Of a stretch of 64,000 nucleotides of DNA, positions 9,967-63,662 are shown in pieces. The stretch spans positions 9,047 to 73,046 of the forward strand of contig JBEKHN010000011.1 in NCBI GenBank assembly GCA_050012255.1, written 5' to 3'. Position 1 is the first letter of the stretch. Every line of letters begins with the position of its first letter. The position numbers and the translations under genes are program-made. The stretch comes from Candidatus Bathyarchaeia archaeon (GTDB lineage Archaea; Thermoproteota; Bathyarchaeia; Bathyarchaeales; Bathycorpusculaceae). The notes beneath the pieces are model-generated. The model made no database searches, was not told where the DNA came from, and saw nothing but the letters and a program-made list of their open reading frames with translations.

Positions 9967-10177
9967 TAGCGCGCATGCTTGTTCCTAAATTCAGTTCAAG
10001 AGGCTGGCGTGGCGTTTTCCGATGAGGGATGGTTACTGTCACGGTTCGAGCTGGGTGCTCTCTCGCTCTCACGCCCTCCCCCCCCCGGGTATCCTATATG
10101 ATCCAAATATGATTGAAGAGCAAAACGGACAGCACTAGCTGCTTTCCAAAAGAATTTAGGAACACGCTAGCGCGCTA
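9967..10177. mobile_element. 211-bp non-coding element bounded by 26-bp imperfect inverted repeats (MITE-like or recombination-site pair)
   Basis: 9967-9992 TAGCGCGCATGCTTGTTCCTAAATTC vs 10152-10177 GAATTTAGGAACACGCTAGCGCGCTA, 23/26 complementary. Confidence 0.6.
10006..10177 (+). repeat. dispersed ~170-bp repeat, copy 1
   Basis: aligns with 57023-57189 (GTTTTCCGATG..GGATGGTTACTGTCACGGTTCG..GGGTATCCTATATGA..GAATTTAGGAACACGCTAGCGCG). Confidence 0.9.
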
Positions 10178-10437
10178 CCAAAATTAACCTTACCCCTGAA
10201 ACAAGGCTATTTCAATTTTTAGTATGCGGATAGCGTGCGCACAGCTGTCTGGCAAGCATCCTGTCACTCGCACGCGCTAAGCTAGATCATGAAAAAAGCA
10301 GTTATCCCAAGTATCGTGGAAAGATCAGGAAGATTGAAAGTGGAATGTTTTCTTGAGATGGAGGATCTTGTGGTTGCCTTTGATGGCTAATAAAGCTGGG
10401 AAGGAAAGTTATTTAGTTTGAGACAACTCACGATTCT

Positions 10438-11439
10438 ATGATTGAAATGCGTTGGAAATCTCTCACGATAATCGGCATCATACTTCTGGTATTTGGAATG
10501 TTTTTCCTGGTTTACGGGACTGAACTTCCTGTCTACTATAAAGGTGGAGGAGCAGGAATATCTGAGACTGGCAGAGTCGTGGGAGGATTAGCGCCGGATC
10601 ATTGCGAAATTAGTTTTTTTACATTGCCAGACACAATTCATATCCGTGTAAGGTCAATAGAACCAGTAATCGTAAGCATTGATGCGCCGAACGGTACCAC
10701 CTTAGCGCAATGGCAAAACGAAACTGTAAATGAGGATTATCCCGTGTCAGAATGTGGCTCCTGGCAAGTCAACGTCTCACAGCCTTCGGGATACTTCGTC
10801 TATGGTGAAGTTCTGGCAACCGCCCCACCGTATGCACATCCAGCGCTGATGTATGCCTTGATTCCCCTGTTATTAGGTTCTCTCAGCACTGTTTACTCAA
10901 TGAGCAAGAGGAGACAGGCAAGGTATTTTGAAAGCGTTCTGTTTCAGCAAAACATTGGCGGAAGATGGGTCTTCTTGCAGTGGGCCTTCATTCTGGCATT
11001 AATTTCTCAAGCGCCAGTGCTTATTCCGAGCTATCCATGGCTTTACCTTGTCTTGCTTTTCATAACCGTGTTTGGCGTGTTTTCATCGATTGCACTTGCA
11101 TACGTAAAGATTTACCTGTCAACCGGGGGCTTGCTCATCGAGGCTCCTTTCCTCAACTTTTCCAGACTATACAAAATCAACAAGATCTATGGCTATACCG
11201 TCACGAAGGAAGAGAAACAGCGATGGTTCTTTCTTAAGCCTCTACCATCATTTCGAGCTAAGAAGGAAGATCAAGTGACCATTTTCATGGTTGACCATCT
11301 GCCAACATGGTTCTGGATCCTATCCCTTGGAAAGAGACTCCTTGCAGACAGAATAATCCTGAGACCCAAATCCACACAGAACTTCGCAACCGTAGCAGAA
11401 AAACTAAACATAGTCGAGAAGGAAATCGCAACGATCTGA
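10438..11439 (+). CDS. hypothetical membrane protein (N-terminal TM, extracellular beta domain, 3 TM, PH-like cytoplasmic tail)
   Basis: 333-aa ORF, hydrophobic segments, more AT-rich than the neighbours. Confidence 0.75.
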   Translation: MIEMRWKSLTIIGIILLVFGMFFLVYGTELPVYYKGGGAGISETGRVVGGLAPDHCEISFFTLPDTIHIRVRSIEPVIVSIDAPNGTTLAQWQNETVNEDYPVSECGSWQVNVSQPSGYFVYGEVLATAPPYAHPALMYALIPLLLGSLSTVYSMSKRRQARYFESVLFQQNIGGRWVFLQWAFILALISQAPVLIPSYPWLYLVLLFITVFGVFSSIALAYVKIYLSTGGLLIEAPFLNFSRLYKINKIYGYTVTKEEKQRWFFLKPLPSFRAKKEDQVTIFMVDHLPTWFWILSLGKRLLADRIILRPKSTQNFATVAEKLNIVEKEIATI

Positions 11440-11515
11440 AGTGCCACTAAGTTTTTTCTTTTCTTGTTTGGGTGGGTTTGGGTTTTGGGGGCTAACTTTA
11501 CCCCAACCAACCACC

Positions 11516-11541
11516 AAGTGCGCATGTGTGTTCCTAAATTG
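11516..11541 (-). repeat. 26-bp site copy
   Basis: AAGTGCGCATGTGTGTTCCTAAATTG matches 9967-9992. Confidence 0.7.
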
Positions 11542-11881
11542 GTCAAAAATCGGTTGTTATTCTTCTTGGGACTTGGGGACTGTTTTGGACTTCCTGCACG
11601 TCACTGTCTTCTTTGAAGTCATCAGAATTGTGCATAGGGCCCGTTTTAATAGAACTGCATTAGGGCCCGTTTGGAAACGGCAAAGCACTCGATGTCCAAT
11701 AACGCGCGCGCTAAGAAAACGCGGGGTAGGGGATGGTCAGAGGACGATGAATCAAGCTTGTCTGGCCGCTTGGTCGTTATGCTGGTGTATGGTGCTGGTT
11801 CCTCGTTCTTTAGCGGAACCCGTGTTTGGATTCAAAAACTTTTTTAGGTGTGTGAGGCATCATTCCTGTAGGTGCTGCTTG

Positions 11882-12127
11882 ATGGGTGAAACAGTCACTC
11901 TGTCTGCCGTGGTGTGGAAGGAGGGAAAACTGCACGTTGCCTGGTGTCCCGAACTGGACATAGCAAGCCAGGGAAGAGACATAGAGCATGCCCTGAGCAA
12001 CTTGCATGAAGCTGTTGAGCTTTATCTTGAGGATGAAGATGCCACTGTCCCAAAAGGAAGATCGGCCATCGTCACAACTCTGAGCGTTGAAACCCATGCC
12101 AAGGCTGCCTCTGGTCTCAGGCCGTGA
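11882..12127 (+). CDS. hicB: HicB-family antitoxin (short, no DNA-binding domain)
   Basis: VAWCPELDIASQGRDIEHALSNLHEAVELYL; start ATG 11882. Confidence 0.85.
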   Translation: MGETVTLSAVVWKEGKLHVAWCPELDIASQGRDIEHALSNLHEAVELYLEDEDATVPKGRSAIVTTLSVETHAKAASGLRP

Positions 12128-12329
12128 AGTAGTCAAGGCTTTAGGCAAAGCCGGCTTCGAGGTAGTAGGGAGAAAGGGAAGCCACATCAGGCTGAAAAGG
12201 AAGGCCCCTGATAAAATCTACATCGTTATCGTGCCCCTCCACTCAGAGATAAAAAGAGGTACGCTCAAATCGATCTTGCGACAGGCTGGATTGACAATGG
12301 AAGAACTCCTGAAACTGCTGAAAAAATAG
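12096..12329 (+). CDS. hicA: HicA-family mRNA interferase toxin
   Basis: SGREVVKAL.KAGF...KGSH...VPLH.EIKRGTLKSILRQAGL. Confidence 0.9.
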   Translation: MPRLPLVSGREVVKALGKAGFEVVGRKGSHIRLKRKAPDKIYIVIVPLHSEIKRGTLKSILRQAGLTMEELLKLLKK

Positions 12330-12523
12330 ATCAGTAAGGGCCTAGAGAGCTGACGAGAATAGTCATGTTCAGCAACGCGCGCTAGTTTATGTCCTTGGAG
12401 CAAGGGGTGAGGTTTGCGCATGGCAAGAACCTCGATCTATTGTTCAAATTGCCTTCTTCAATCGTTTATGGAGGCGATAGTGGCGGCCATGTCTGACCAC
12501 TTTCATAGTACCACATGAATGTC

Positions 12524-13351
12524 TCAGGGGTACGACCAGCGCTCAAAGTTCCATTTATAAATGCCGCCGTTTTCCAGTAGCCAAGCGTCGCAGCCTACTG
12601 GACCGCTCACCCACTTTTTCTCTTTGCCGTTCCAGTAGTACCATATCCATGTGTAGCCCCAGGCGTAAGATGGGTCAATATGCGTTGATTTGTTGTTGAT
12701 AGAATCAACTAGCACATGGCCTGGTTCAGTGAGGGCGTAGTAGCTGTATTTGATGACGGCTATCTCTTGTGTTAATTTGAAAAGGGTATAACCTGCGGGC
12801 ACTTTGGTTTCATTGTGCCATTCCACGGTTTCGTTTCCATAATTGATTTCAACGTTTACGGACAGTGTCGTAGCTTCGCTGATTGACAGTGCTAGCTCCC
12901 TGAGTGCAGAAAGGCTAAACAAGTCATGGTACTCGCTAAGCAGATTACCAAAATCTGTTCTTGTTATGTTACCTTTCTGCTGAAGTGTTTCGTAGTCGCT
13001 TAGGAGTTGATCGTACGTTTTGTTCATGTCCTCCTGTTCGAAGAGGTTGGTGTAGTTTTTGCCCAAGCTTGTGATTGCACTTCCTAAAGGTGGCATTAAA
13101 GTCACGTAATTGCTGCTCGTGAAGTATGAGTAGTTGCCATATAACGAGGCGTATTCAGTCAACAGCAAATCATACTTTTCGGTTGCATTGCCGTAGCTTG
13201 ATGCGACTTTGTTTAGCGAGTTTTGAGCGCTGTTTAGTTGCTCAGTGTTGTTTCCATTCTGGAGGAAGTAGTACCCAGCAAACGATGAGGCCAGGGCTGC
13301 CCACACGATTGAGGCAAGCATCAAGAATACAAACGTTCTTTTTTCGACCAA
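12524..13351 (-). CDS. membrane-anchored coiled-coil protein with C-terminal DUF4430-like (putative cobalamin-binding) domain
   Basis: N-terminal TM, helical stalk, tail VDSIN...WIWYYW...VGCDAWLLENG; overlaps the ECF S-component gene. Confidence 0.65.
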   Translation of the reverse strand: MVEKRTFVFLMLASIVWAALASSFAGYYFLQNGNNTEQLNSAQNSLNKVASSYGNATEKYDLLLTEYASLYGNYSYFTSSNYVTLMPPLGSAITSLGKNYTNLFEQEDMNKTYDQLLSDYETLQQKGNITRTDFGNLLSEYHDLFSLSALRELALSISEATTLSVNVEINYGNETVEWHNETKVPAGYTLFKLTQEIAVIKYSYYALTEPGHVLVDSINNKSTHIDPSYAWGYTWIWYYWNGKEKKWVSGPVGCDAWLLENGGIYKWNFERWSYP

Positions 13352-13893
13352 GGAGATTCGCCAACCTTTAAACTGTTTAACGCATTGGTGATTGGAAGAA
13401 ACAGAACTCCAAAAACCACGCTGTTAGATACTATGTGTATTAACGAATAGAAGGAGCCATAAGCTACGGCAGTAAACAAAGCCAAAGATGAGTCCTCGCC
13501 CGTTAGAATGAGCTGAACGCCAAATCCCAAGTTAGTAATCAAGTCATAAATTAGAGCAATAAAAGCGCCTAAAACAGCCGTTTCTAAAAAGAAATCTCTG
13601 GAAAGATTAATGTCGCGCGTGAATCTTCTATACACGCCCCCCAGACCCCCCGCGATCATCATGCCTACTATCTGAAAAGGGATGTTTAAGCCGCCAAATC
13701 CCCATGGAGACGAAAACCCGTTTATGAGCATCACAAAGCTACCGAAAAACGCGCCAACGAGGGCTCCTTCCATCAAGCCGAAAACAAAAGAGAAGAAAGA
13801 TGTAAACTCTACATTTGGCGGCCTAGGAGTAATCTGAAGAGCTATACATAGCCCGGTCAGAATTGTTAGGAGAGCAAGTTTCCGCGTATTCAT
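13321..13893 (-). CDS. ECF transporter S-component (CbrT-like)
   Basis: TRKLALLTIL, PPNVEFTS, multi-TM, YDLITN, HIVSN. Confidence 0.75.
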   Translation of the reverse strand: MNTRKLALLTILTGLCIALQITPRPPNVEFTSFFSFVFGLMEGALVGAFFGSFVMLINGFSSPWGFGGLNIPFQIVGMMIAGGLGGVYRRFTRDINLSRDFFLETAVLGAFIALIYDLITNLGFGVQLILTGEDSSLALFTAVAYGSFYSLIHIVSNSVVFGVLFLPITNALNSLKVGESPWSKKERLYS

Positions 13894-13985
13894 TTAGGCT
13901 CAGCCGCTGGTTAGATAATCCAGCCAACCTATATAAAAATTCCTATAAACAACTAGCAACAGCTTATACGCGAGGAAAAACGCGG

Positions 13986-14666
13986 TTGACGACTCTTGAA
14001 ACTGTTGCCAGAGTGGCAGCTAAAATCGCGCCTGGACGGCTGCCCTCGTTCGCTGAGGCTCATGTCGTAGAGGCTTTGGAGGACATTAGCGGTCTAGGAG
14101 CTGTGGGCAGGCTGAGACTTTCAAGGGATCTCGACTTAGGGGAAGGTGAAACTAGGACTCTCGTCAGGCATCTCAAGAACGAGGGGCTGATTGAAGTTTC
14201 AAGATCAGGGATCTCGCTGTCTGACGCTGGAAGGAAGCTGCTTTCTGGCCTGAGAGCGGTCTTGAGCGAACAAGTAGCGATTCCGTCTACGCCCTTGACA
14301 GTCGGACGCTTCAACATTGCAGTTCGAGTGGCAGGAATGAAAAACTCCGTAAAGTACGGCCTGGAACAGAGAGACGCTGCCATAAAAGCAGGCGCAAAGG
14401 GAGCTACGACTTTAATCTTCACCAAGAACGGGTTAGTCATGCCTGGCACTGGAGAAGACATGTCAAAAAGTAGTTCCTCCATCATTGCCGCGTTGTCAAA
14501 ACTGAGCTTGAACGCGGGCGATGTCATAATAATCGGAAGCGCAGATGAAAAGATTAAGGCAGAACTTGGAGCGAAGACGGCCGCACTTGACCTCCTCAAA
14601 TCAAAGACCAGAATGCTTAACAGAGATTCCGGCAACGTGACTCTCAAAATGCGAAACGCGCAATGA
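13986..14666 (+). CDS. winged-helix + DUF4443-type protein (start probably TTG 13986)
   Basis: VGRLRLSRDLDLGEGETRTL HTH; GLEQRDAAIKAGAKGATT. Confidence 0.75.
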   Translation: MTTLETVARVAAKIAPGRLPSFAEAHVVEALEDISGLGAVGRLRLSRDLDLGEGETRTLVRHLKNEGLIEVSRSGISLSDAGRKLLSGLRAVLSEQVAIPSTPLTVGRFNIAVRVAGMKNSVKYGLEQRDAAIKAGAKGATTLIFTKNGLVMPGTGEDMSKSSSSIIAALSKLSLNAGDVIIIGSADEKIKAELGAKTAALDLLKSKTRMLNRDSGNVTLKMRNAQ

Positions 14667-14699
14667 GCACTCAATGGCTCGCGAGATTGTCGGCATGGC

Positions 14700-16229
14700 C
14701 TAGAAGATCAGTTCTCTGCTCAGCCAGTCTGGATACCACTTGTATTTTTCTAGAGGCCCAGCCTTGCGCAATCCATCATAAGTCGCCTTCGCAAGTGAAA
14801 TTGTCTTTCGCGAGTCGCGGTAAACTTTTGCCAAACCCTTAGCCTCAAGTCCCTTCAGAATTTCGTCGAATTTCTCGTCGCTTGTCTCTGTGAGTCTCTC
14901 TTTCAGGTCTTCTCGCGACATGTAGAGGCCTGGGTTCACCGTGTAATCTTCAGCCAAAACTTTCATGATGCCGTCTTCGCTTGGTTCCATCTTGGGTAAG
15001 GGTTCAATTGTGGATATCGGAACTCCGAGTTTTCGGTGAATACGTCTGTGCGGCATCCTGAGGTCTTTGCCCATTGCTTTCAATCCGCCTCGGAAGATCA
15101 CGAGCCTCATGATCTCGTTGGTTCCAGCGCCGATCTGGTTCACTTTGGCGTCTCGAAGATAACTCTCAACGGGGTAGAAGCGCGTCCAGCCGTCGCCTCC
15201 CATTACCTGAACAGCGTCGCTGATGAGCTTCTCAAACGTGTCTGAAGTGAACATTTTAGCGGTTGCAGCTTCTACCATTGCCTCCTTGTGCTGGTCCAGA
15301 AGGTAAGCGGCGTGATAGACGAGCAACCGCGAAGTGTACAGTCCAGAGAGCATCTCGGCAACCTTGGACTGGTTTGATGGGATATCTATGGTTGGTTTGT
15401 CGAACTGCATCCGTCTCTGCGTGTAAGCAACTGCATGGCGTATCGACTCTCTCATGGGACCAAGCATGCCAGCTGAAAAAACGACTCGTTCAAAGTTTAG
15501 GCCCGCCATCATCACTTTCCACCCTGCTCCTTCGGGTCCTAAGCAGTTTCCAGCCGGAACCCCGACGTTGTTGAAGTCCAAGAACCCGTTCGGAAGGCCA
15601 AACCATCCTGATAGTTCATTGATTTTCTCAACGGAGAAACCGGGCGTTTTCTTTTCCACAAGAAAGGCCGTGAGATGTTGGTACTTTGCCTTGTCTTCAG
15701 GTTTTTCGCTGGTCTTCGCGTAGACAACGTAGACATCAGCCAGTCCCGCGTTTGTTATGAAACGTTTTTTCCCGTTTAGAACGTAGCCGTTTCCCTCACG
15801 CTTAGCAGTTGTCTCTATCCCTGCAGCATCGGAGCCGACGAAAGGCTCCGTGATGCAGACAGCGCCGATGACCTCGCCCCTGGATATTCTTGGAAGCCAC
15901 TTGCGTTTTTGCTCTTCAGTTCCAAAGGTCAAGAGTTGTTCGACGCCGCCGAACATGGATACGGCGTACGCCTCTGATAGGGCTGAGCAGACTCTGCTGA
16001 GCTCCTCAGTTACGATGCTTACGCCTGTGACTCCTGTGCCCGTGCCACCATACTCAGTCGGGATGACGACTCCAAACCATCCTTTCCGAGCAACTTCCCT
16101 CAACAGTTCATGCGGGAACTCTTTCGTCCAGAAAACCTCTTCACCCTTTGGGAGACTCTGGTCAGCGAAGGCTTTAGCTTCCTCCATCAGGATTCGTTGC
16201 TTGTCACTCCACCATGAAAAGGTTTCCAT
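14700..16229 (-). CDS. acyl-CoA dehydrogenase with C-terminal extension
   Basis: ITEPFVGSDA, LNGKKRFITN, QVMGGDG, IGAGTNEIMR, plus about 120 extra C-terminal residues. Confidence 0.9.
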   Translation of the reverse strand: METFSWWSDKQRILMEEAKAFADQSLPKGEEVFWTKEFPHELLREVARKGWFGVVIPTEYGGTGTGVTGVSIVTEELSRVCSALSEAYAVSMFGGVEQLLTFGTEEQKRKWLPRISRGEVIGAVCITEPFVGSDAAGIETTAKREGNGYVLNGKKRFITNAGLADVYVVYAKTSEKPEDKAKYQHLTAFLVEKKTPGFSVEKINELSGWFGLPNGFLDFNNVGVPAGNCLGPEGAGWKVMMAGLNFERVVFSAGMLGPMRESIRHAVAYTQRRMQFDKPTIDIPSNQSKVAEMLSGLYTSRLLVYHAAYLLDQHKEAMVEAATAKMFTSDTFEKLISDAVQVMGGDGWTRFYPVESYLRDAKVNQIGAGTNEIMRLVIFRGGLKAMGKDLRMPHRRIHRKLGVPISTIEPLPKMEPSEDGIMKVLAEDYTVNPGLYMSREDLKERLTETSDEKFDEILKGLEAKGLAKVYRDSRKTISLAKATYDGLRKAGPLEKYKWYPDWLSRELIF

Positions 16230-16344
16230 GTTTCATGCACCGAGAGTACTATTGGCTAGGAGTCCATTCGAATTTTAAACTTTCGCCTAACATTGGAAAC
16301 GAAGAGGCAGGCAAATGAGATTCTGGCTGATTGCTTCAAGGATC

Positions 16345-16710
16345 TTATCTGCTTATAGCGCCGCCGATTAGCCCCCCAATGGCAGATATTACCCCGCCTA
16401 CGATGCTGGCCAGTATTGCCACAATTCCGACGAGCGAGCCTATTACTACACCTAACAGTCCTCCCAAGATGCCGCCTGCTGCTCCTCCGATTGCTCCTGC
16501 AGTGATTATTGCAAGTATGCCGAGGATCAATCCGCCGAAGATTCCAGCGATGAAGCCTGCTAATAATCCTCTGCCTGCTCCTCCTGCTATAATACCTGCG
16601 ACAAGTCCACCGATTATGTGACCAGCGAGGGAACCAATCCCGGGGGCCACCGATCCGAGGAAGACAGTGACTAGAAAACCGACGAAGGCTCCGAGCAACA
16701 GGTGGCCCAT
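16345..16710 (-). CDS. small glycine-rich membrane protein (DUF5518-like)
   Basis: GxxxG-rich TM helices from MGHLLLGAF at 16710. Confidence 0.7.
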   Translation of the reverse strand: MGHLLLGAFVGFLVTVFLGSVAPGIGSLAGHIIGGLVAGIIAGGAGRGLLAGFIAGIFGGLILGILAIITAGAIGGAAGGILGGLLGVVIGSLVGIVAILASIVGGVISAIGGLIGGAISR

Positions 16711-16869
16711 GATAGCACCGATTCTTCTGTACTTAGGCTGAGTATATAAAAGATCTGTCGCTACTCTGCCGATAGAATGCGAAGGGTTGGGCTTTTGAAC
16801 CCAGCTAGCCATGTTAAATCTTATATGAGCGGCTGCAAGAATAGGAGGTGAGTCCAGGTTCAACCTTGT

Positions 16870-43542: not shown

Positions 43543-43914
43543 GTGATGAAAATGTCCAAACAAGAAAAAGCCATGACGAAAGACAGGCTGATTGGAATGC
43601 AAGTGATCGATGCTGAGGGAAACAATGCCGGAACCATAAAGGACATAGCGTTCACCGTTGGAAAAATGGGTATGACCATAATCGTTGAGACTGAGAAGAG
43701 TGGGGACATGGAAGTCCCGTGGGAACAGATTCAAGCAGCAGGAGACTACGTCCTGCTAAAACCAGCAACTACTCAAACCCAGACTTTCGGGCCGCAACCA
43801 ACGTTGCAGACGCAGCAAGCACAAGCACCTGTCTGCCCCACGTGCGGCGGACCCCTAACTTACATTCAACAGTATCAGAGATGGTACTGCTACAAAGACA
43901 AGAAGTACGTGTAA
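43543..43914 (+). CDS. PRC-barrel protein fused to a CPxCG...YQRWYC zinc-ribbon-like domain
   Basis: LIGMQVIDAEG..AGTIKDI...VPWEQIQAAGDYVLL; Q/T/P linker; CPTCGGPLTYIQQYQRWYCYKDKKYV. Confidence 0.8.
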   Translation: MMKMSKQEKAMTKDRLIGMQVIDAEGNNAGTIKDIAFTVGKMGMTIIVETEKSGDMEVPWEQIQAAGDYVLLKPATTQTQTFGPQPTLQTQQAQAPVCPTCGGPLTYIQQYQRWYCYKDKKYV

Positions 43915-44103: not shown

Positions 44104-44682
44104 ATGGATTCAAGAGAAGGATATCTACACGACTATCTTGTAGCAAGCTTCGTTGGAATAGCTTTCGGCATGGTTGTTGCTTCTCCTGCGGGACTTGTGC
44201 TTGGGGACTGGGGAAGATACATAGGCGCAATGGTCGTAGCAGGTCTATTTGGCTTCGTTCCGGGCGGTCTGGCATCAGGCTACATCAACTTTAGGTTCCA
44301 TCAGATGGGAGAAAATTCGGAGATGAGCGGTCTGAGCGCTGGCTTCTTCACGGCCATTGTCTACACCATCGTTGATCTCATCATCACTTTGGTCTATGCG
44401 ATACTGGGTGCTGATGCTGGCAGGGTCTTCATCGGTTGGGTCATAGCGGTGGCCTTCGGATTCATATTCTTCACACTGGGAGGCTATCTTTCAGGTATGC
44501 TTGAAAAGAAACCGTTTGCGATGCCTAGCATGTTCAATCTTTCGCGAATTCAAAGAGGCGCTACGGCTCCTCCGCCACCACCGCCAGGAGCTGCGATGAC
44601 GTGTCCGAGCTGTGGCAGTCCGTTGAGATACATTCAGCAATACCAGCGATGGTACTGCGACAAAGAAAAGAAGTACGTCTGA
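44104..44682 (+). CDS. 4-TM glycine-rich membrane protein with polyproline linker and CPxCG...YQRWYC tail
   Basis: TM helices, APPPPPPG, CPSCGSPLRYIQQYQRWYCDKEKKYV. Confidence 0.8.
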   Translation: MDSREGYLHDYLVASFVGIAFGMVVASPAGLVLGDWGRYIGAMVVAGLFGFVPGGLASGYINFRFHQMGENSEMSGLSAGFFTAIVYTIVDLIITLVYAILGADAGRVFIGWVIAVAFGFIFFTLGGYLSGMLEKKPFAMPSMFNLSRIQRGATAPPPPPPGAAMTCPSCGSPLRYIQQYQRWYCDKEKKYV

Positions 44683-49320: not shown

Positions 49321-49398
49321 TGGTGGACGGGCCGGGATTTGAACCCGGGGCCTCCACGATGCCAACGTGGCGATCGTACCAGGCTGATCTACCCGCCC
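49321..49398 (-). tRNA. tRNA-Ala (GGC), intronless, CCA encoded
   Basis: GGGCGGG/CCCGTCC acceptor with G3:U70, anticodon arm CCACG-TTGGCAT-CGTGG, GGTTCAAATCC T-arm. Confidence 0.95.
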
Positions 49399-56462: not shown

Positions 56463-56692
56463 GACTTTTGCCTCCGTTGACCTTGAAGCGCAAGAGCCGA
56501 GATATCATCTGGCTTAAGAGGCAGATTGCTCAGATGATCTAATACGTGTTTTGGACGTGTTTTGGCGGATGGCTTGTTGTCTGAACGATGCTGATTCTCT
56601 GCAAGTTCACTGCCACGGTGAGTCTGTTGTTCTCCAAGATCTAGACCAGATTTGCGTCGGCGTCGACCGCTACGCAGACATTGGTGGCCGTT

Positions 56693-56864
56693 TCGCGCAC
56701 TGGCTTGTCCCTAAATTCGCCAATAGCGCACACGTGAGAGCATATACAGTTTGCATATACAGTTGACGAGCATCGTTGAAAACGGTGAGGCTTTTCAAGT
56801 TGGATGCGGAGCTACGTGGCTGTTCAAGTGCGCACGCATAATAAAGGGACAAGGCAGCGCGCAA
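56693..56864. repeat. inverted pair of degenerate 26-bp sites
   Basis: 56693-56718 TCGCGCACTGGCTTGTCCCTAAATTC and 56839-56864 TAATAAAGGGACAAGGCAGCGCGCAA. Confidence 0.6.
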
Positions 56865-56940
56865 TTAGAGAATAAGAGTGCGAGGCGTGGGACGTTCACC
56901 CAAGTTTATCGGTAAGAATATGCTTTCAATATGCTTGGCG

Positions 56941-56967
56941 AGAGTTCGAATCTCTGCTGGGCTACCA
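56941..56967 (+). other. tRNA 3'-end fragment (Gln-like), att-like
   Basis: AGAG-TTCGAAT-CTCT-GCTGGGCT-ACCA; no 5' half upstream. Confidence 0.6.
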
Positions 56968-57022
56968 TTCCACCCAATTCAGAGTGACGCTCAAACTCGG
57001 GTTAATAGCGGTGCAAAAGGGA

Positions 57023-57189
57023 GGCATGGGGTTTTCCGATGGGGATGGTTACTGTCACGGTTCGGGCTGGGTGCTTTCGTGCTCAAGCTCTCTCTCCGGG
57101 GTATCCTATATGACCCAAATGTGATTGAAGAACAAAATGAGCAGCACGAGCCACTTCCCAAAAGAATTTAGGAACACGCTAGCGCGTTA
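57023..57189 (+). repeat. dispersed ~170-bp repeat, copy 2
   Basis: aligns with 10006-10177. Confidence 0.9.
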
Positions 57190-57291
57190 TGGTGGTCTGC
57201 GGACTTGACGTCCAAACCGTGAGGGCAGATGAAAGTGCTGCAAGTGAGGTCTTTTGACTTCAGTTCCGTTCGCTTTACCAAGACAAAACAA

Positions 57292-57636
57292 TTAGTGGTG
57301 TTCCACTAGGATGTCTTTTCCTTCAACTTTCACCGCGTAAGCAGGCTCGTCTTTGATTTTTGGGTGCATGAGGAGAACCCTTGGGTCCGAAACCACTTTG
57401 CCGGTTGTGACGTCGAATTTTGCTTTGTGATTGGGGCAGATTACTATGTTTCCCTCAAGTGTTCCTTTTGATAGTTCCCCATTCCTGTGTGTGCAAATGT
57501 TTCCGATGACGTAATAAATGCCTTTTACGTTCGCAATCAAAACCTGATTTTCCACGAACTTGAAGGCCTTCATTTGTCCCAGAGGGATCTCAGACGTTTC
57601 CGCAACTTTCACAAAAGTCAGTTTTTCCACCTTCAA
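57292..57636 (-). CDS. Rieske [2Fe-2S] ferredoxin
   Basis: CTH...CPNH..FDVTTG. Confidence 0.9.
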   Translation of the reverse strand: MKVEKLTFVKVAETSEIPLGQMKAFKFVENQVLIANVKGIYYVIGNICTHRNGELSKGTLEGNIVICPNHKAKFDVTTGKVVSDPRVLLMHPKIKDEPAYAVKVEGKDILVEHH

Positions 57637-57674
57637 TCGTTCTTCATGCTTTTCTCGCCTATTTTCAATCGCTA

Positions 57675-58307
57675 TTAATTGCTAATGGCAGGCGCTTGCC
57701 GCAGATACTTCGTATCCTGGACTTGTCTGAGCAGGAAATCGGCCAAATCTGCACGGGAAATCCATGTCCCCACTTCGCCCTTGCCTACATAGCCAGCTTT
57801 GACTTTTCCAGATTTGGGATTATTGTTAAGCATTGTCAAACGCACGATGGTCCAATCAAGATCGGAGTCGCGTACCGTTTCTGCGACGCTGACTATCTCT
57901 TCATACGCATCATGCATCGTGACCTTAACAAGGTTGACCAGAGCTTTGGTTCTGAAATTCAGCGGGTCGTTTGGATCCTTAGCGCTAAGGGTTGAAGTTA
58001 TGATTAGTCTTCGTATGCCTTGTTTCTTCATGGCAGCAATGATGCTGTGCATTCCGCGCGTAATTGGTTTGTTTTTCGAATCGCCTCTTGGACCCAGAGC
58101 ACTAATGACTGCGTCTGCCTCACTTACTGCGCTTTCAATCAAAGGCTCATCAGTCAATTCGCCTTGTATAACCTTCAAATGCTCATGGCTTATGTTCAGC
58201 TTGGATGGATTACGAACATAAGCTACAACATAATCTCCGGCGGCAAGTGCCTGTTCGACGAGTCGTATGCCTGTGTTACCGGTTGCTCCAAAAACAGCGA
58301 TTCTCAT
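57675..58307 (-). CDS. NAD(P)H-binding flavin reductase / biliverdin reductase B-like atypical SDR
   Basis: GATGNTG, VRNPSK, DAVISALG, LDWTIVR, ISRADLA. Confidence 0.88.
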   Translation of the reverse strand: MRIAVFGATGNTGIRLVEQALAAGDYVVAYVRNPSKLNISHEHLKVIQGELTDEPLIESAVSEADAVISALGPRGDSKNKPITRGMHSIIAAMKKQGIRRLIITSTLSAKDPNDPLNFRTKALVNLVKVTMHDAYEEIVSVAETVRDSDLDWTIVRLTMLNNNPKSGKVKAGYVGKGEVGTWISRADLADFLLRQVQDTKYLRQAPAISN

Positions 58308-58322
58308 GTCATCACATGCACC

Positions 58323-58733
58323 CTAAGCTCTTAGCAAGATGTCGTTGCCCTCTGCTCTTACTTCGTATGTGGGCTGATCATAGGTTTTGATAGACTCTTG
58401 TATTTTTCGTTGGCGTTGGACCAATTGCGATATGGTCTTCTGGACTTCTTCGGGGCACTTTTCAAATATGTTTGCACTACCTGTCATTTCTACTGGGCCC
58501 GAAACCATTTTCCCCGTAATCACATCAAATCGTGAGAAGTGTTGAGGACAAGTCACGATGTTCTTGTCCAAAGTGCCCATAGAAAGCCTCGCGTTCATGT
58601 GACTGCATCGGTCACTTGTTGCGCAGATTTTGCCATCCACGTTTACGAGCATTATCTCTTTTCCGTCTACTTCAACGTGCCTTATCTTGCCCAGAGGAAT
58701 CTCCGAAGTCTCAGCGACTTTGATAAAACTCAA
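58323..58733 (-). CDS. Rieske [2Fe-2S] ferredoxin with helical insertion
   Basis: CSH...CPQH.SRFDV.TG. Confidence 0.88.
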   Translation of the reverse strand: MSFIKVAETSEIPLGKIRHVEVDGKEIMLVNVDGKICATSDRCSHMNARLSMGTLDKNIVTCPQHFSRFDVITGKMVSGPVEMTGSANIFEKCPEEVQKTISQLVQRQRKIQESIKTYDQPTYEVRAEGNDILLRA

Positions 58734-58791
58734 ATTTCACACCTGATTGTCTTCTGAGGGTTAGAATTACAGTTAACGTCAAGCTTACTCA

Positions 58792-59403
58792 TCACTCTGC
58801 GCTGCCTTCTTCCATTGCTTGGATTTGCTTTCTGTCCTTTTGCTCGGACCGTTCTAGTTGGGCTACTCTCCTGTTGATTACGGCTAGCTCTCTCTGTAAC
58901 TCTTTGATCATTTTCTCAATCTGTTTGCGCTTGCCTTCTAAGACGTTCATCGTATCTCCCGGTTTTTCTTTTCTCTCTTCAAGAAAGACTGAGAAAAGGT
59001 TCGGTATTCTTGGGATAGAAACGGTCTTCTCTACATCCAACACGTCTTTCATGAATTCTGTGAACAAGCCGCTCATACTATTGGCAATTTGACTCTCTTT
59101 GGCCAGAGACCGCTTTAAAACATGCTTGCCCGCCTCAGTGATTCGAAATATCTTTCTTTTCCTTTTCTTCTGAACCTCCCATTTTCCCTCGATATATCTC
59201 GAGTCTTCTAGGTCTCGAAGTCTGGGATAGATGCCGCCAGCGGTGGGTCTCCAAAAACCCATGGTTCTTTCCTTGATCTCTCTCATTATTTCATAGCCAT
59301 GATACGGCTTCTTGCTGAGAAGAATTAGCACGGCAATACGTATGTAGCCCTTCTGCGTTTCCTTAAGCCAGTGCCCAGCAGTTATTTCGTCTTCACACTG
59401 CAT
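58792..59403 (-). CDS. PadR-family transcriptional regulator
   Basis: HGYEIM, GGIYP.L..LE, RKIFRITEAG, C-terminal coiled coil. Confidence 0.9.
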   Translation of the reverse strand: MQCEDEITAGHWLKETQKGYIRIAVLILLSKKPYHGYEIMREIKERTMGFWRPTAGGIYPRLRDLEDSRYIEGKWEVQKKRKRKIFRITEAGKHVLKRSLAKESQIANSMSGLFTEFMKDVLDVEKTVSIPRIPNLFSVFLEERKEKPGDTMNVLEGKRKQIEKMIKELQRELAVINRRVAQLERSEQKDRKQIQAMEEGSAE

Positions 59404-59476
59404 TTAGGCTCATCTTTCTCATCTGAGTATTATCGGAATATTTATATTTTACTGCGATGTATTGCACTGAACAATA

Positions 59477-60520
59477 TTGCGTGGTGATGCTCTCTTGGAA
59501 AATGACCCAATAATCGACGTCAAGAACTTGACGAAGTCCTTCGGCAATTTCGTGGCGGTTGACAACATCTCCTTCGACGTGAAAAAAGGCGAGGTATTCG
59601 GTTTGCTCGGTCCCAACGGAGCGGGTAAAAGCACAACCTTAAGAATGCTCTCTACGTTGGCCAGGCCAACAAATGGAACTGCCACCATTGGCGGTTACGA
59701 CATAGTGAAGAACGATACTGAAGTGAGAAAACTGATAGGAATCGTTTCCGAAAAGATGATAATGTACAACCGACTGACGGCCAGGGAGAACCTAATCTTC
59801 TTCGGAAATCTCTTTAACATTCCCAAAAACGTCTTAACGAAGAGAATTGACGACCTGCTAGAGCTGGTTCAACTCACCAAATGGAAAAACGCTCAAGTGG
59901 GTACATTTTCAAGTGGTATGCGACAGAGGATGAACGTGATACGGGCGCTGCTCAATATGCCCCAAGTGCTATTCTTGGATGAGCCAACTTTGGGTTTGGA
60001 TCCTCAATCGTCTGTTGAGATTAGAGAGTTCATAAAGAAACTCAATAGAGAAAATAACACCACAATTATCATAACGACGCACATGATGGTTGATGCCGAT
60101 TTGCTATGTGATCGCATAGGCATTATGGACCATGCCAAAATTGTTGCGCTTGACACATCCACGAATTTAAAAAAACTCATTTCTGGAGAGGACACAACAA
60201 TACTGAACCTAGAGATTGGAAATTTATCACCCGATATTATTGAGGCAATCCGGGCGTGCAAGTGCACGGACGCCGTTTCTCAAGAGAATTCTACCCATTT
60301 GAGAATCATTGCCCACGGCGATGAGGCGTTCAACTCAGTAATTGACGCTGTGAGGGAGAAAGACGGAAAGATAAATTCTATGGAAAATCCTCAGCCTTCA
60401 CTTGAGGATGTGTTCTTGCACATAACCGGTCACGAGGTAAGAGATAGCGCAGATCAAAGGATACCGATGGCGATGGGTCGTCGACGCTTTGGAGCGCCCC
60501 CGCAAGGGAGGATACGGTGA
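59477..60520 (+). CDS. ABC exporter ATP-binding protein (DrrA-like)
   Basis: GPNGAGKST, FSSGM, DEPTLGLD, TTH, PSLEDVFL.ITG. Confidence 0.92.
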   Translation: MRGDALLENDPIIDVKNLTKSFGNFVAVDNISFDVKKGEVFGLLGPNGAGKSTTLRMLSTLARPTNGTATIGGYDIVKNDTEVRKLIGIVSEKMIMYNRLTARENLIFFGNLFNIPKNVLTKRIDDLLELVQLTKWKNAQVGTFSSGMRQRMNVIRALLNMPQVLFLDEPTLGLDPQSSVEIREFIKKLNRENNTTIIITTHMMVDADLLCDRIGIMDHAKIVALDTSTNLKKLISGEDTTILNLEIGNLSPDIIEAIRACKCTDAVSQENSTHLRIIAHGDEAFNSVIDAVREKDGKINSMENPQPSLEDVFLHITGHEVRDSADQRIPMAMGRRRFGAPPQGRIR

Positions 60521-60526
60521 GGCAGT

Positions 60527-61729
60527 ATGGGCGCAAAAGCTCTTCTTTCACATAGTTTAAGGATTGCCTGGAAAGATTTGAAGGAGCTTTATCGGAACCG
60601 ACTCGGGTTAGTCCTGCTTGTTCTGATGCCTTTGTTCATGATGGTCATGGTTGGCTTTATATATCCATCAAGTAACAGCTCCCCGACCAACTTGCCAGTT
60701 GCTCTCGTGAATGAAGATACAGGCTATGGTAATTCAATTTTTTTAGGAAAGAATTTTACAATGGCATTGCAACAGATTAACAGCAATACAAGCATGATTG
60801 CTCTTTCCAACGCATCAAGTGTGAGCGATATCAAAAGCATGGTTCAGAAAGGCGATATCGAAGGAGGCATAGTCATCCCAAGCAATTTCACTGAGAGCAT
60901 CTTGAACGGAGAACAAGGTACTCTGATCATTATAACCGACCAGTCTAACCCGCAAGTATCGGCTACCATTCAGGCAGCTTTGTCAGCTGTTTTCGACCAG
61001 ATGGGCACATTGATAGCCCAAAATAAGGTTAAGGGCTTAAACCCGGCGGTAGTCAACGACAACAACTCCCTCGCCTACGTGAAGCCTTACAGTGTTCAGA
61101 CAGAAGGAGTTGTACCCGGAACTCCCAGTTACTTCGACTTCATCGCCCCAGGAATAATGGCCATGACCGTGATGATGAGCGTCATGACAGGGCTCCCTGT
61201 GGCGATCTCCCAAGAGAAGGAAGTCGGTACTTTGGACGGAATGATGGTTGCACCAATAAACAGGCTGTCCATAATACTCGGGAAAACTCTAGGTCAGACT
61301 GCCAGAGGCCTGCTGCAAGGAGCCATTATACTGGTGATGGCTGCGGTTTTGTTCCACGTCGCAATTCAAGGAAGCATCCTGCTTGTCTTCGCGCTGCTCT
61401 TGCTGGGCGTGTTCAGCTTCGTAGGCCTCGGCATCGTAATAACATCCTTCGCAAAAGACCAAGAGACAGCGCAGATGATGATGATGACGCTGATGTTCCC
61501 CATGATGTTCCTCAGCGGAGTATTCTTCCCCATACAGCAAATGCCCTGGTACATGCAAGACATTTCAAGAGTGCTTCCCCTTACCTACGCATCGCAAGCC
61601 CTCAGGAAAGTCATGGTTCTAGGCGCAGGAATACCGGACATAACCACTGAGCTTACAATAATGATAGTGTTCGGAGCGATCATGACAGCAATAGCTGTGC
61701 CCGTTTTCAGAAGAATGATGACAAGGTAA
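60527..61729 (+). CDS. ABC-2 permease with extracellular domain
   Basis: PGIMAM, EKE.GTL, FLSGVFFP, PLTY. Confidence 0.9.
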   Translation: MGAKALLSHSLRIAWKDLKELYRNRLGLVLLVLMPLFMMVMVGFIYPSSNSSPTNLPVALVNEDTGYGNSIFLGKNFTMALQQINSNTSMIALSNASSVSDIKSMVQKGDIEGGIVIPSNFTESILNGEQGTLIIITDQSNPQVSATIQAALSAVFDQMGTLIAQNKVKGLNPAVVNDNNSLAYVKPYSVQTEGVVPGTPSYFDFIAPGIMAMTVMMSVMTGLPVAISQEKEVGTLDGMMVAPINRLSIILGKTLGQTARGLLQGAIILVMAAVLFHVAIQGSILLVFALLLLGVFSFVGLGIVITSFAKDQETAQMMMMTLMFPMMFLSGVFFPIQQMPWYMQDISRVLPLTYASQALRKVMVLGAGIPDITTELTIMIVFGAIMTAIAVPVFRRMMTR

Positions 61730-61750
61730 GAAAGAAAGGAGTTTATCACC

Positions 61751-62698
61751 TTGGCAAATCCGTGTATCGAAAGTGCAAAACTTTCCAAAAAGTACGGCTC
61801 TTTTGTAGCAGTGTCGGATCTAAACTTGAGAATTGAAGGGTCGAAGTGTGTTGGATTCTTGGGCCCGAACGGCGCAGGGAAGACAACTACTCTCAAAATG
61901 TTTACTGACCTGATCAGGCCGTCTTCTGGAGAGGCTCTGATAAACGGTTTCAACGTGCACACTGACAAGAGAAAAGCACTGGCTTCTGTGGGTGCTCTGA
62001 TCGAAACTCCCGAAATCTACCCTTCGCTAACGCCGAGGGAAGCGCTCATGATGATAGCCGAGATAAGAGGAGTGCCGAGCACGGAGCGGAGCAAGAGAAT
62101 AGAGGAAGCCGTTTCAGAAGTTCGCCTGGAGGAATGGATGGATAAGAGGGTTGGCAAGTTCTCCAAGGGAATGAAACAGAGAATATGCATCGCCTCTGCG
62201 CTTCTGAGCGATCCAACCATACTTCTCCTGGACGAGCCCACCAACGGTCTTGACCCAAGAGGAATGAGCGAAGTCAGAGGCATCATAAAATCCCTTAAGA
62301 GCAAGAAGAGACTGATTTTCATGAGCTCCCACATTCTCAGTGAGGTTTCAGAAGTCTGCGACGAAGTCGCAATGATCGACCATGGAAAACTAATCGTCTA
62401 CGACACGATTCCCAACGTGACAGCCAAGTTCACAGGAGGAGAGAACATCGTGGAGGTTGAGCTACAACGTCCAATCGATTCCGAGCTGACAATCAAGAAA
62501 ATAGCGGCCATTCCAAGCATAGTCACGGCAGAGAGAAAAAACGACAAGAACTTGACAATCAGGTTCAACGGAGGCTCGGACGCACAAGAAAAGATCCTCT
62601 CTGACCTGGTGAAAATGAACATTGGAGTAATCAGTTACAGACCAGCGTCATCAGAACTCGAAGACGCATACCTCAAACTTATCACGAGCACGTTGTGA
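61751..62698 (+). CDS. ABC transporter ATP-binding protein
   Basis: GPNGAGKTT, FSKGM, DEPTNGLD, SSH. Confidence 0.92.
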   Translation: MANPCIESAKLSKKYGSFVAVSDLNLRIEGSKCVGFLGPNGAGKTTTLKMFTDLIRPSSGEALINGFNVHTDKRKALASVGALIETPEIYPSLTPREALMMIAEIRGVPSTERSKRIEEAVSEVRLEEWMDKRVGKFSKGMKQRICIASALLSDPTILLLDEPTNGLDPRGMSEVRGIIKSLKSKKRLIFMSSHILSEVSEVCDEVAMIDHGKLIVYDTIPNVTAKFTGGENIVEVELQRPIDSELTIKKIAAIPSIVTAERKNDKNLTIRFNGGSDAQEKILSDLVKMNIGVISYRPASSELEDAYLKLITSTL

Positions 62699-62704
62699 GC
62701 AAAC

Positions 62705-63559
62705 ATGAACGAAACAGAAACAATATCTGAGAACAAAGTGCCGAGCAGCCTCACACAAGTCGGCATCACGATGAAATACACGTTCCTCGACTACTTCAGA
62801 TCACGCAGATTCTTCATACTGCTAACCATAACCCTCGCAATAAGCGCCCTACTCACCTTCATAGTCGGATACTACCGTCCCGCGAGTTTTCTCGCTTCCA
62901 ACCTGTCGTTCTACTCTGGCTGGTGGGGCAACTCAACAACCTTCGTCGTCGTATTATCAGGCATCTTCTTCGGAGGAGACGCCATCTCAGGAGAATTCCA
63001 AAACAAGACAGGCTACTTCGGAATCCCAAACCCGATCAGAAGATCATCAATATACGTGGGAAAATGGTTGGCAGCTCTAGTCGCGTCCACTATAATATTG
63101 AGCGTATTCACGGCAATTACACTTGGCAATGGAATGTACTACTTTGGCTCAAACGTGCCATACCAATTCGGCGAATCCGTGCTGTTCGCATGGTTCTACC
63201 TCGTGGCAGTCCTCGGATTCACATTCTTCTTCAGCTCCCTGTTCAAAAGCAGCTCAATGTCCATACTCGTAACCGCTATACTCTTCCTCTTTGCATTCAC
63301 ACTCATCGAGACACTCATCGCAGACCTCGTTCAAATCGAACCTTGGTTCATCCTGACCTACGGCGGACAAATAATAGGAAACGTACTGAAAGCATCCTAC
63401 CCGCCATCGACCTCTGTAAGCAGCTTCGGGCCCGGAGGCCAGCGGACTTTCATCACCTACAACGTTACCATTTCAGAAGGCCTCGCAATCATAGGACTCT
63501 ACTTTGTCATTACCGCGATACTGGGATTGGTCCTCTTCGAAAGAAAGGAGTTTACATAA
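62705..63559 (+). CDS. ABC-2 permease
   Basis: DAISGEFQNKTG, P..R..IY.GK, 6 TM, FERKE end. Confidence 0.88.
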   Translation: MNETETISENKVPSSLTQVGITMKYTFLDYFRSRRFFILLTITLAISALLTFIVGYYRPASFLASNLSFYSGWWGNSTTFVVVLSGIFFGGDAISGEFQNKTGYFGIPNPIRRSSIYVGKWLAALVASTIILSVFTAITLGNGMYYFGSNVPYQFGESVLFAWFYLVAVLGFTFFFSSLFKSSSMSILVTAILFLFAFTLIETLIADLVQIEPWFILTYGGQIIGNVLKASYPPSTSVSSFGPGGQRTFITYNVTISEGLAIIGLYFVITAILGLVLFERKEFT

Positions 63560-63605
63560 ACGAGAATTGACGGTGAATGACAGAGAGTAAGGAAATACTG
63601 AACAT

Positions 63606-63662
63606 CAAAATGAGTAGCACAAGCTACTTACCGAAAGAATTCAGGAACACACTAGAGCGCGA
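63606..63662 (+). repeat. partial copy 3 of the dispersed repeat including a 26-bp site
   Basis: CAAAATGAGTAGCACAAGCTACTTACCGAAAGAATTCAGGAACACACTAGAGCGCGA vs 57133-57189. Confidence 0.8.

Follow-up and report, generated by a model that had tools for sequence, protein, structure and literature searches.

The 26-bp motif that recurs in the window (that is, the whole 64,000-nucleotide stretch of contig C11 analyzed here) is very probably the terminal inverted repeat (TIR) shared by an insertion sequence of Bathyarchaeia and the MITEs derived from it. This identification draws on the ends that the two kinds of element share, the insertion-sequence anatomy, the copy number, the intergenic bias, a patchy expansion within one genus, and the existence of occupied and empty sites. 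In the window itself, two MITEs are full-length, one is truncated, and two others are represented by end fragments; they cluster in two variable intergenic zones flanking a conserved ∼44-kb block. A sequence-only reading of the same DNA had offered two options, an integron/pdif-like gene-shuffling system or the ends of a non-autonomous family mobilized in trans; the second is essentially right, apart from the tRNA targeting that it included.

A scan of the window for GAATTTAGGAACA-n5-GCGCGCTA at up to three mismatches returned six sites, at 9967(-), 10152(+), 11516(-), 56693(-), 57164(+), and 63637(+), against 0.00 expected from 100 shuffles. The seventh site that had been proposed, 56839-56864 (+), reads TAATAAAGGGACAAGGCAGCGCGCAA, has five mismatches, and was recovered only by a five-mismatch scan. 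It is a right end from a subfamily that has diverged, and all seven sites are real. Motif scan and similarity search both failed to find a copy between about 12 and 56 kb, in agreement with the claimed copy-free core. The long-repeat copies also stop where the earlier reading had placed the end of their homology, at a GCGC core: the end logo, the flank listing, and the contigs of other copies, where divergence sets in at 9966-9969 and 10175-10178, all indicate a GCGCGC(TA) terminus. While the sites of the earlier geometry hold, its bracketed genes do not behave as units, the natural units being the convergent (-,+) pairs 9967-10177 and 56693-56864. What had been described as short non-coding spacers between sites are MITE bodies, with the genes lying outside the elements, and the "8-7-8 inverted core" of the same description was not found. 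The inverted-repeat arms in the window measure 26 nt and are 85-88% complementary, and neither of the two ORFs that overlap its MITE copies has a Pfam match.

The first full-length element, a 211-bp MITE of subfamily A at 9967..10177, has a left repeat (9967-9992) and a right repeat (10152-10177) that both match the motif perfectly, with TA on either side. It aligns over its full length, at 84-86% identity, with 12 other A copies in the genome, and has dozens of dispersed copies in the same-genus genomes G001 and G007; moreover, summed contig depth rises across it, and other copies diverge at its edges. The next element is a B/E-type end fragment of ∼100 bp (11516..11616), whose terminal repeat (11516-11541) contains three mismatches and whose positions 11517-11567 match the ends of C34:5736-5914 and C1:281933-282234 at 92% identity. 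The remainder of this element is decayed, and a GCGCGCGCTA remnant near 11700-11713 may be its former right end. Of a hicBA pair claimed nearby, the HicA half was confirmed at 12087-12329.

On the other side of the conserved block, a full-length 172-bp MITE of subfamily C (56693..56864; left repeat 56693-56718, right repeat 56839-56864) has a terminal repeat of the GTCCC type and shows 83-89% identity to C22:26001-26170, C34:2758-2942, and C1:14453-14635. Beyond it lies a 5'-truncated subfamily A MITE (57011..57189), which lacks the first ∼27 bp, including the left repeat, retains the right repeat (57164-57189), and is 85-87% identical to positions 28-205 of the A copies. The matching flank in G001 carries a complete A-type MITE adjoining a P-type ATPase gene. 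In G007 too, homology to the right part of the MITE (G007:C9:78117-78259) lies directly against the end of the ATPase match. The last element, a subfamily A right-end fragment of ∼64 bp (63598..63661, including the repeat at 63637-63662), matches the final ∼62 bp of the A copies at 85-87% identity, and homology to G001 and G007 ends at 63595-63596, immediately ahead of it.

Genome-wide, the motif occurs as 121 ends at up to four mismatches. There are 48 pairs of adjacent (-,+) ends, and 41 of these have a spacing of 166-314 bp and constitute full units, distributed over 20 of the 38 contigs. The 41 units fall into subfamilies of 13, 9 (subfamily C), 8, 5, and 3 members plus three singletons, with best pairwise identities in subfamilies of 93.5-99.5%. 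The longest stop-free frame per unit has a median length of 61 codons and never exceeds 100, and 28 of the 41 lie wholly outside ORFs of at least 150 aa, against 6.4 at random. In a logo of the 121 ends, flank positions -12 to -1 carry zero information, whereas GCGCGC is conserved at 94-98%, the conserved blocks of the repeat being GCGCGC, GC, TGTTCC, and AAATT. The flanking dinucleotide is not uniformly TA (T in 58% and A in 78% of ends), and no longer target duplication is visible at the element flanks. Small and non-coding, bounded by terminal inverted repeats, dispersed as families, sharing ends with a transposase-bearing element, and polymorphic in presence, these units have the features of MITEs.

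The same ends enclose an insertion sequence of 1.0-1.1 kb with a 328-aa ORF containing DUF772 and DDE_Tnp_1 domains. An intact 1097-bp copy is present in G003, of the same genus, where the 328-aa ORF has its stop codon inside the right repeat and matches DDE_Tnp_1 (PF01609) at 2.4e-20 and DUF772 at 1.4e-10. The assembly of the window's genome contains no intact transposase of the family, only one broken copy and contig-edge fragments: C24:15246-16334 carries broken DUF772 and DDE_Tnp_1 pieces between such ends, and residues 295-328 of the transposase are encoded, at 97% identity, by the contig ends C3:177890-177991 and C34:8810-8911. Further, among 68 fetched loci encoding transposase relatives, mostly from Bathyarchaeia, 35 have a repeat pair 1008-1129 bp apart, and the match between MITEs and the insertion sequence continues for up to ∼60 bp past the repeat. 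An alignment of 11 transposases shows no variation at D126, D210, and E270, a putative catalytic triad, or in Y263-x2-R266-x3-E270, a Y-x2-R-x3-E arrangement that we take to be typical of IS4/IS5 transposases. With none of the NCBIfam insertion-sequence models does the transposase reach the curated cut-off (99.1 bits vs 140 for IS5_4, 140.4 vs 270 for IS1182, and 65.6 vs 110 for IS5_3), and we therefore call it no more than IS5/IS1182-like. The dinucleotide flanking full insertion-sequence copies varies. Contig C11 contains no DDE_Tnp_1 or tyrosine-recombinase match, as the sequence-only reading had noted for the window.

The family is patchily distributed. We counted 100 copies in G000, 68 in G001, 35 in G003, and 31 in G007, with 0-8 in the other seven genomes of the genus and 0-2 in each of 30 genomes of other genera; a control with the reversed pattern gave one match in all 41 genomes. 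Transposase relatives were found almost only in Bathyarchaeia MAGs. A flank search of 180 elements identified four sites that are occupied in a relative and empty in G000. At one of these, inside a CxxC ORF, deletion of the element and one TA restores frame and length; the only clean empty site (L108 compared with G000 C1) shows a TA duplication. Two of the four retain a single GCGCGC-like core of 12-15 nt, and one site is off by 1 nt. Some insertions are old and shared, such as that at C1:290246 in G000, G001, and G007. A check for excision at 9967-10177 revealed no empty form among the contigs of four public runs and so gave no sign of current mobility.

These data make it very improbable that the copies are a host functional sequence, whether a regulator operator, a promoter module, or structured small-RNA genes whose inverted-repeat ends are incidental. 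Such a role would suit their mostly intergenic location, and the A+T-rich AATTTAGG part, ∼20 nt from the element edge, might conceivably provide an outward promoter. However, copy numbers run from 0 to 100 within one genus, orthologous sites vary in presence, one insertion interrupts an ORF, and the same ends bound a transposase gene. Moreover, the position of the copies relative to genes varies in the flank listing, and the sole Rfam match in the window is one tRNA.

Under a cassette system of the integron or pdif kind, a recombinase would act on the 26-bp sites, cross over in the GCGC core, and shuffle the intervening genes as cassettes. Homology between copies does stop at the GCGCGC terminus, two of the "empty" G000 sites resemble a fusion of left and right ends at one GCGCGC core, and some blocks of synteny with G001 have their limits precisely at sites (within 5 bp for 3 of 96 block ends, vs 0.11 at random). 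The sites, however, are inverted repeats around either a conserved non-coding repeat body of 166-314 bp or a DDE transposase gene, and the intervals that contain genes lie against the outward edges of separate elements. A proposed test was whether sites coincide with synteny breakpoints; this holds for those three ends but not for the 87 of 96 (about 90%) that lie more than 300 bp from any site. Another was to look for a recombinase beside some copy: none is present on C11, and among the 12 tyrosine-recombinase matches in the genome only a fragment, C15:3498-3638, adjoins a site.

The 6.4-kb block that had been read as bracketed by sites is not a unit. Its annotation was correct, as Pfam identifies Rieske, NAD(P)-binding, Rieske, and PadR genes plus two ABC-2 transporter pairs at 57292..63559. 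G007 contains window positions 58766-63595 contiguously, whereas in G001 only 57050-61742 is collinear, beside the ATPase gene, with 61749-63596 located elsewhere; synteny thus breaks at ∼61745, where the window has no motif site. The block consists of ordinary chromosomal genes between two different element remnants and is not cargo. An integron comprises an IntI-type tyrosine recombinase beside a same-orientation cassette array, in which an attC ends each cassette; C11 has no PF00589 match, and the sites are convergent inverted pairs rather than a same-orientation array. In pdif modules, sites of ∼28 bp have two recombinase-binding arms around a central spacer, and the flanking gene modules are mobile as units. 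The present motif does not have this two-arm, spacer-centered layout of dif, only its terminal 10 nt, TAGCGCGCTA, being palindromic, and relatives do not conserve the gene intervals as units. We consequently regard a cassette system as extremely improbable, even with an 8.3-kb block on contig C13 that has a copy on each side.

This C13 block also bears on whether pairs of MITEs also move the genes between them, either as composite transposons or as substrates for recombination. Homology to G001 begins precisely where one B-type MITE ends and stops ∼12 bp before the next, and in G001 the block has neither MITE and lies in different outside DNA. In addition, the block order on C15 differs from that in G007 with elements at the joints, and block ends are enriched at element boundaries. 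However, the outer flanks of the C13 block have no counterpart in five relatives at a limit of 1e-60, so that no empty donor or target is demonstrable, and no block turned up in a second location with the same MITEs beside it. The pair at C6:30953-32576 consists of two unrelated end fragments around unique DNA, and homologous recombination between dispersed repeats, or a pile-up of elements in variable zones, gives the same pattern. Relocation by MITE pairs is therefore unlikely. The single-core empty sites also fit a GCGCGC target or recombination at the core, and we give a small chance to a joint scheme in which the palindromic GCGCGC termini do more than delimit the elements, through insertion into GCGCGC-like targets or through removal by exchange between an element's two identical terminal cores (with a single-core footprint left behind, as at two of the four empty sites), and in which pairs of copies also relocate gene blocks; if true, the family would be a main driver of accessory-gene shuffling in the genus.

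The tRNA 3' fragments that had been reported near the sites were recovered by similarity search at 9927..9955 (+) and 56936..56970 (+). The first, 12 bp upstream of the MITE at 9967..10177 and outside it, shares 85% identity with C2:63764-63800, a fragment that in turn resembles the 3' end of a tRNA-Leu; neither ARAGORN nor Rfam calls a tRNA here, and it is probably the scar of an integrative element. The second has the C-type MITE on one side and the truncated A-type MITE on the other, belongs to neither, and is 91-93% identical to the 3' end of the tRNA-Gln at C6:42749. The idea that the family targets tRNAs is unsupported, as only 6 of 28 such fragments lie within 350 bp of an element end and most elements have none nearby.

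For the insertion sequence and its MITEs, we propose that the transposase binds the repeat blocks GCGCGC, GC, TGTTCC, and AAATT and would cut at the GCGCGC termini, after which the element would be inserted elsewhere, mostly between genes. Insertion would probably occur at TA, with the TA duplicated, as the one clean empty site suggests. Because the MITEs retain only their ends and some subterminal sequence, they would be moved in trans by the transposase of full copies; for the family, both catalysis and this mobilization are predicted from the shared ends and the transposase ORF.

A candidate cassette system is thereby replaced by a MITE family and its parent insertion sequence in an uncultured, globally abundant archaeal class, adding an IS5/IS1182-like lineage that is divergent and has unusual GCGCGC termini. 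The elements mark variable zones and some synteny breakpoints, can split genes, as with the interrupted CxxC ORF of one relative, and, with copy counts anywhere from 0 to 100 among genomes of the genus, provide a strain-level marker. The repeats also account for 11 of the 76 contig breaks in the MAG, these contig termini falling within an element.

Known systems that come close include archaeal MITEs such as SM1-SM4 of Sulfolobus solfataricus, for which 25-44 copies are given in PMC10969869, where MITEs are also listed in Sulfolobus, Halobacterium, Haloquadratum, and others. Like these, the present elements are short, non-coding, repeat-bounded, present in tens of copies per genome, and have ends as in resident insertion sequences; unlike them, they have a Bathyarchaeia host, an unrelated terminal sequence with GCGCGC termini, and an IS5/IS1182-like parent. 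Our literature search found no paper on MITEs together with Bathyarchaeia or Bathyarchaeota, and the main text of PMC11602168, a census with its element lists in supplements, contains "Bathyarch" 0 times. The parent resembles IS5/IS1182 in its ∼1.1-kb length, single ORF with N-terminal DUF772 and DDE_Tnp_1, invariant D, D, E and Y-x2-R-x3-E residues, ∼26-bp terminal inverted repeats, and an ORF that terminates within the right repeat, and its best plasmid-borne transposase relatives, at 26-28% identity, are annotated as IS5 family. It differs in scores under all NCBIfam IS5 and IS1182 cut-offs and in a duplication of at most 2 bp (TA) that is inconsistently visible. Among bacterial MITEs that duplicate TA, the Correia elements of Neisseria, which are ∼100-150 bp long with ∼26-bp inverted repeats, a TA duplication, and a high copy number between genes, have a similar anatomy but no sequence relationship and belong to another domain of life; the family described here has an identifiable parent insertion sequence. 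With integron attC and pdif sites, the motif shares short repeated sites beside accessory genes and homology that breaks at a defined core; it differs from them in having no linked integrase, in forming inverted pairs around non-coding bodies or a transposase gene, and in gene intervals that are not units. The 26-bp sites are ordinary mobile DNA rather than a new gene-cassette system and add no new mechanism.

The 26-bp motif GAATTTAGGAACA-n5-GCGCGCTA matched the window at six positions with ≤3 mismatches (0.00 expected, from 100 shuffles), and the seventh site reported by the sequence-only reading (56839-56864; 5 mismatches) was recovered solely by a looser scan, which bears out all the positions it had listed. 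Our motif scan found no further copies in the window, and the stretch from ~12 to 56 kb, previously described as empty, was indeed free of both motif and element-like sequence in the window scan and the element comparison. The sites belong to MITEs, whose subfamilies are here denoted A, B, C, and E, namely a complete A-type MITE (9967-10177), a B/E-type end fragment (11516-11616), a complete C-type MITE (56693-56864), an A-type copy lacking its left end (57011-57189), and an A-type right-end fragment (63598-63661). The two short non-coding spacers noted between sites are present and are in fact the internal sequences of the two complete MITEs, while the membrane-protein gene (10438-11439; no Pfam match) and the 6.4-kb Rieske/PadR/ABC block between sites 57164 and 63637 are flanked by the outer faces of different elements. 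The gene content assigned to this block was confirmed, with Rieske, NAD(P)-binding, Rieske, and PadR genes and two ABC-2 transporter pairs at 57.3-63.6 kb, and a P-type ATPase gene lies upstream of these genes. An ORF of the HicA toxin family (12087-12329, + strand; Pfam 1.6e-21) is situated in a variable zone and adjoins the MITE fragment, and a tRNA-Ala (49321-49398) is the sole tRNA or Rfam match in the window. Two other repeats were also seen: four to five tandem 120-bp copies (8790-9406; 70-85% identity) in ORF 8318-9625 (- strand), whose product is a PQQ/beta-propeller protein carrying CARDB and dockerin domains and having many paralogues in relatives, and a 77-nt direct repeat (43834-43910 and 44602-44678; 77% identity) that corresponds to CxxC zinc-ribbon-like segments of neighbouring genes.

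A scan of the whole 2.35-Mb assembly, in which the window spans positions 9047-73046 of contig C11 and which the sequence-only reading had proposed to scan, returned 121 motif copies at ≤4 mismatches and 139 at ≤5. Adjacent copies in (-,+) order form 48 pairs, with spacings of 166-314 bp in 41 pairs, 1089 and 1624 bp in two, and >11 kb in five, the last being unrelated neighbours. All 41 short units share the layout TAGCGCGC...TGTTCCTAAATTC [body] GAATTTAGGAACA...GCGCGCTA, which identifies the motif as a terminal inverted repeat. These units have no real coding capacity and fall into subfamilies of 13 (182-211 bp), 9 (170-212 bp), 8 (176-188 bp), 5 (166-168 bp), and 3 (302-309 bp) members plus three singletons, with best pairwise identities of 93.5-99.5%. 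They avoid genes, since 28 of the 41 have no overlap with any ORF of ≥150 aa, compared with 6.4 for random placements (maximum 16 in 500 trials). In a logo of the 121 ends, twelve flanking positions carry no information and are followed by T (58%), A (78%), and GCGCGC (94-98%), which therefore defines a sharp element boundary. No other GCGCGC-terminated repeat family with >9 copies was found in the genome. The hexamer itself occurs 1353 times against 878 expected under a fourth-order model; 119 of these occurrences lie in element ends, and the remainder belong to no large repeat family.

The 1089-bp pair (contig C24, 15246-16334) encloses two ORF pieces matching DUF772 (1.7e-9) and DDE_Tnp_1 (8.4e-12), and is the sole transposase-bearing copy of its kind assembled in this genome (G000). 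A same-genus relative, G003, carries an intact 1097-bp element with the same ends and a 328-aa ORF (DDE_Tnp_1, 2.4e-20; DUF772, 1.4e-10) whose stop codon lies within the right repeat. Homology of the MITE ends to this insertion sequence extends up to ~60 bp past the repeat. The 1624-bp pair (C6:30953-32576), considered as a cargo element, was rejected, as its two end fragments are unrelated to each other and the DNA between them is unique, with a 126-aa ORF lacking a Pfam match. Transposase fragments also occur at contig ends of G000, two of them (C3:177890-177991 and C34:8810-8911) with 97% identity to residues 295-328 and another at C20:1-54, and 11 of the 76 contig termini lie inside an element; full insertion-sequence copies thus probably exist in this genome but were collapsed by the assembler. 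A nested insertion lies within a scrambled region at C34:5657-5914, where a 179-bp MITE splits the left end (79 bp, closely resembling the G003 element) of a full insertion-sequence copy; no duplication can be defined there because of the scrambling.

When one genome per prokaryote species was scanned, 68 loci were found to encode relatives of the transposase, 63 of them on contigs titled Bathyarchaeia or Bathyarchaeota and the other five titled Nitrososphaeria (1), Patescibacteria-group MAG (2), and Methanomethylicia (2). At 35 of the 68 loci, a repeat pair spaced 1008-1129 bp surrounds the transposase gene, and GTCCC-type ends like those of subfamily C occur at a locus of a remoter lineage (L224; 43% amino-acid identity). 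Residues D126, D210, and E270, together with Y263-x2-R266-x3-E270, are invariant in 11 aligned transposases. The two Patescibacteria-group loci are on two contigs of one MAG, with related GCGCGC...GTTGC ends, and the encoded transposase shares 45-48% identity with its Bathyarchaeia counterpart, which could reflect mis-binning or transfer between domains.

The sequence-only reading had proposed an integron- or pdif-like gene-shuffling system, or the ends of a tRNA-targeting element family. The former is ruled out by three observations taken together: sites pair as inverted repeats, such pairs can enclose a transposase gene, and tyrosine recombinases are missing from the window's contig, with just one of the 12 matches genome-wide, a fragment (C15:3498-3638), adjoining a site. 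The search it had suggested for an enzyme beside some copy thus yielded a transposase, on C24 and in G003, and no tyrosine recombinase save that fragment. The proposed tRNA targeting was not supported. Among 28 tRNA-end-like fragments outside tRNA genes in G000 (27 of them 3' ends), six lie ≤350 bp from an element end, a modest enrichment over the 0.78 obtained for random points, but most elements have no tRNA fragment nearby, and the link is weak because the random-point control ignores that both features are intergenic. In addition, there are three copies of tRNA-Leu(gag), two of them on small contigs (C35 and C38). Together, the fragments and these copies suggest that tRNA genes have been integration targets many times in the past, and that an extrachromosomal or integrated element may be present. 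A second repeat of ~60-70 nt, found at 56871-56937 and 63791-63857 (75% identity between these two) and at C14:62452-62527 and C38:3392-3438, adjoins tRNA 3'-end-like fragments and may mark an integrative element family with no relation to the MITEs, as its end or att scar.

Evidence of mobility came from a flank search with 180 elements, which identified four distinct sites where an element present in a relative is absent from G000. Earlier searches against G000 had used sequence flanking 74 elements at retrieved loci and nine pairs in 400 kb of the relative G001, and 41 G000 MITEs were compared with the same 400 kb; the yield of empty sites was low across all flank searches. In one named MAG locus, the element lies within a CxxC ORF that is empty at C1:295253 of G000 and also in the relative G007. 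This ORF regains its frame and length once the element and a single TA are removed, which suggests that the insertion duplicated TA. A second empty site fits TA duplication apart from a 1-nt difference. At two empty sites in G000, a single 12-15 nt GCGCGC-like core remains as a left end/right end fusion, which we read as deletion between two identical palindromic termini, although insertion into a GCGCGC-like target may also account for it. The dinucleotide flanking full insertion-sequence copies is variable too, and no duplication longer than 2 nt is visible at the elements. Old insertions common to G000, G001, and G007 are also present, and three regions around the youngest copies showed replacements or shared insertions instead of clean empty sites. 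In contigs from public runs, the edges of the repeat fall at 9966-9969 and 10175-10178. No empty form of 9967-10177 occurs in the Logan contigs of four runs covering 9300-10900, a result uninformative on mobility either way. Contig joints that skip from 9992 to 10148/10152 do not represent excision, as they reflect alignment of one inverted repeat to the other.

The cassette reading of the 6.4-kb block fails on synteny. Window 57050-61742 is collinear with G001, where the final pair of ABC genes (61749-63596) is found ~800 kb away across a break without a motif site; G007 keeps 58766-63595 together. The block is hence no cassette. The ATPase flank carries a complete A-type MITE in G001 versus a C-type MITE, a tRNA-like fragment, and a truncated A copy in G000, which indicates secondary rearrangement. 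When sites were compared with synteny breakpoints, as had been proposed, using 96 ends of alignment blocks ≥1 kb between the 400 kb of G001 and G000, three ends fell ≤5 bp from the edge of an element (0.11 expected by chance) and nine ≤300 bp (3.5 expected); the remaining 87 did not coincide. Further coincidences are an 8.3-kb block on C13, common to G000 and G001 but bounded by two B-type MITEs absent from G001, and a block order on C15 that differs from G007 at elements. Such coincidence of elements and breakpoints is explained by exchange between dispersed copies and by the accumulation of repeats in variable zones; a composite-transposon role for pairs of elements is less likely.

An exact-pattern scan detected at least 104 stretches, with 73 of 80 among the matches listed titled Bathyarchaeia or Bathyarchaeota, and element flanks from contigs so titled show up to 96% identity to G000 contigs, which places G000 in this class. 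Across 41 related genomes, motif counts were 100 in G000, 68 in G001, 35 in G003, and 31 in G007, with 0-8 in the genus's other seven genomes and 0-2 in 30 genomes of other genera (one match in total for a reversed-pattern control); such a patchy burst is the pattern given by mobile repeats. An archaeal MITE census screened 8220 archaeal genomes and reported 18,091 archaeal MITEs (PMC11602168), its main text containing no instance of 'Bathyarch', while the archaeal MITE hosts named in a review are Sulfolobus, Halobacterium, Haloquadratum, and a few others (PMC10969869). The literature searched yielded no description of MITEs in Bathyarchaeia or Bathyarchaeota. In NCBIfam, the transposase is nearest to IS5_4 over its full length and to IS1182 at its N-terminus, under every curated cut-off in each case, and its best plasmid matches (26-28% identity) are annotated as IS5 family. 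The motif family, correctly spotted from sequence alone, is thus real and abundant, and it places a MITE/IS family of known kind in a lineage whose MITEs had not been described in that literature.
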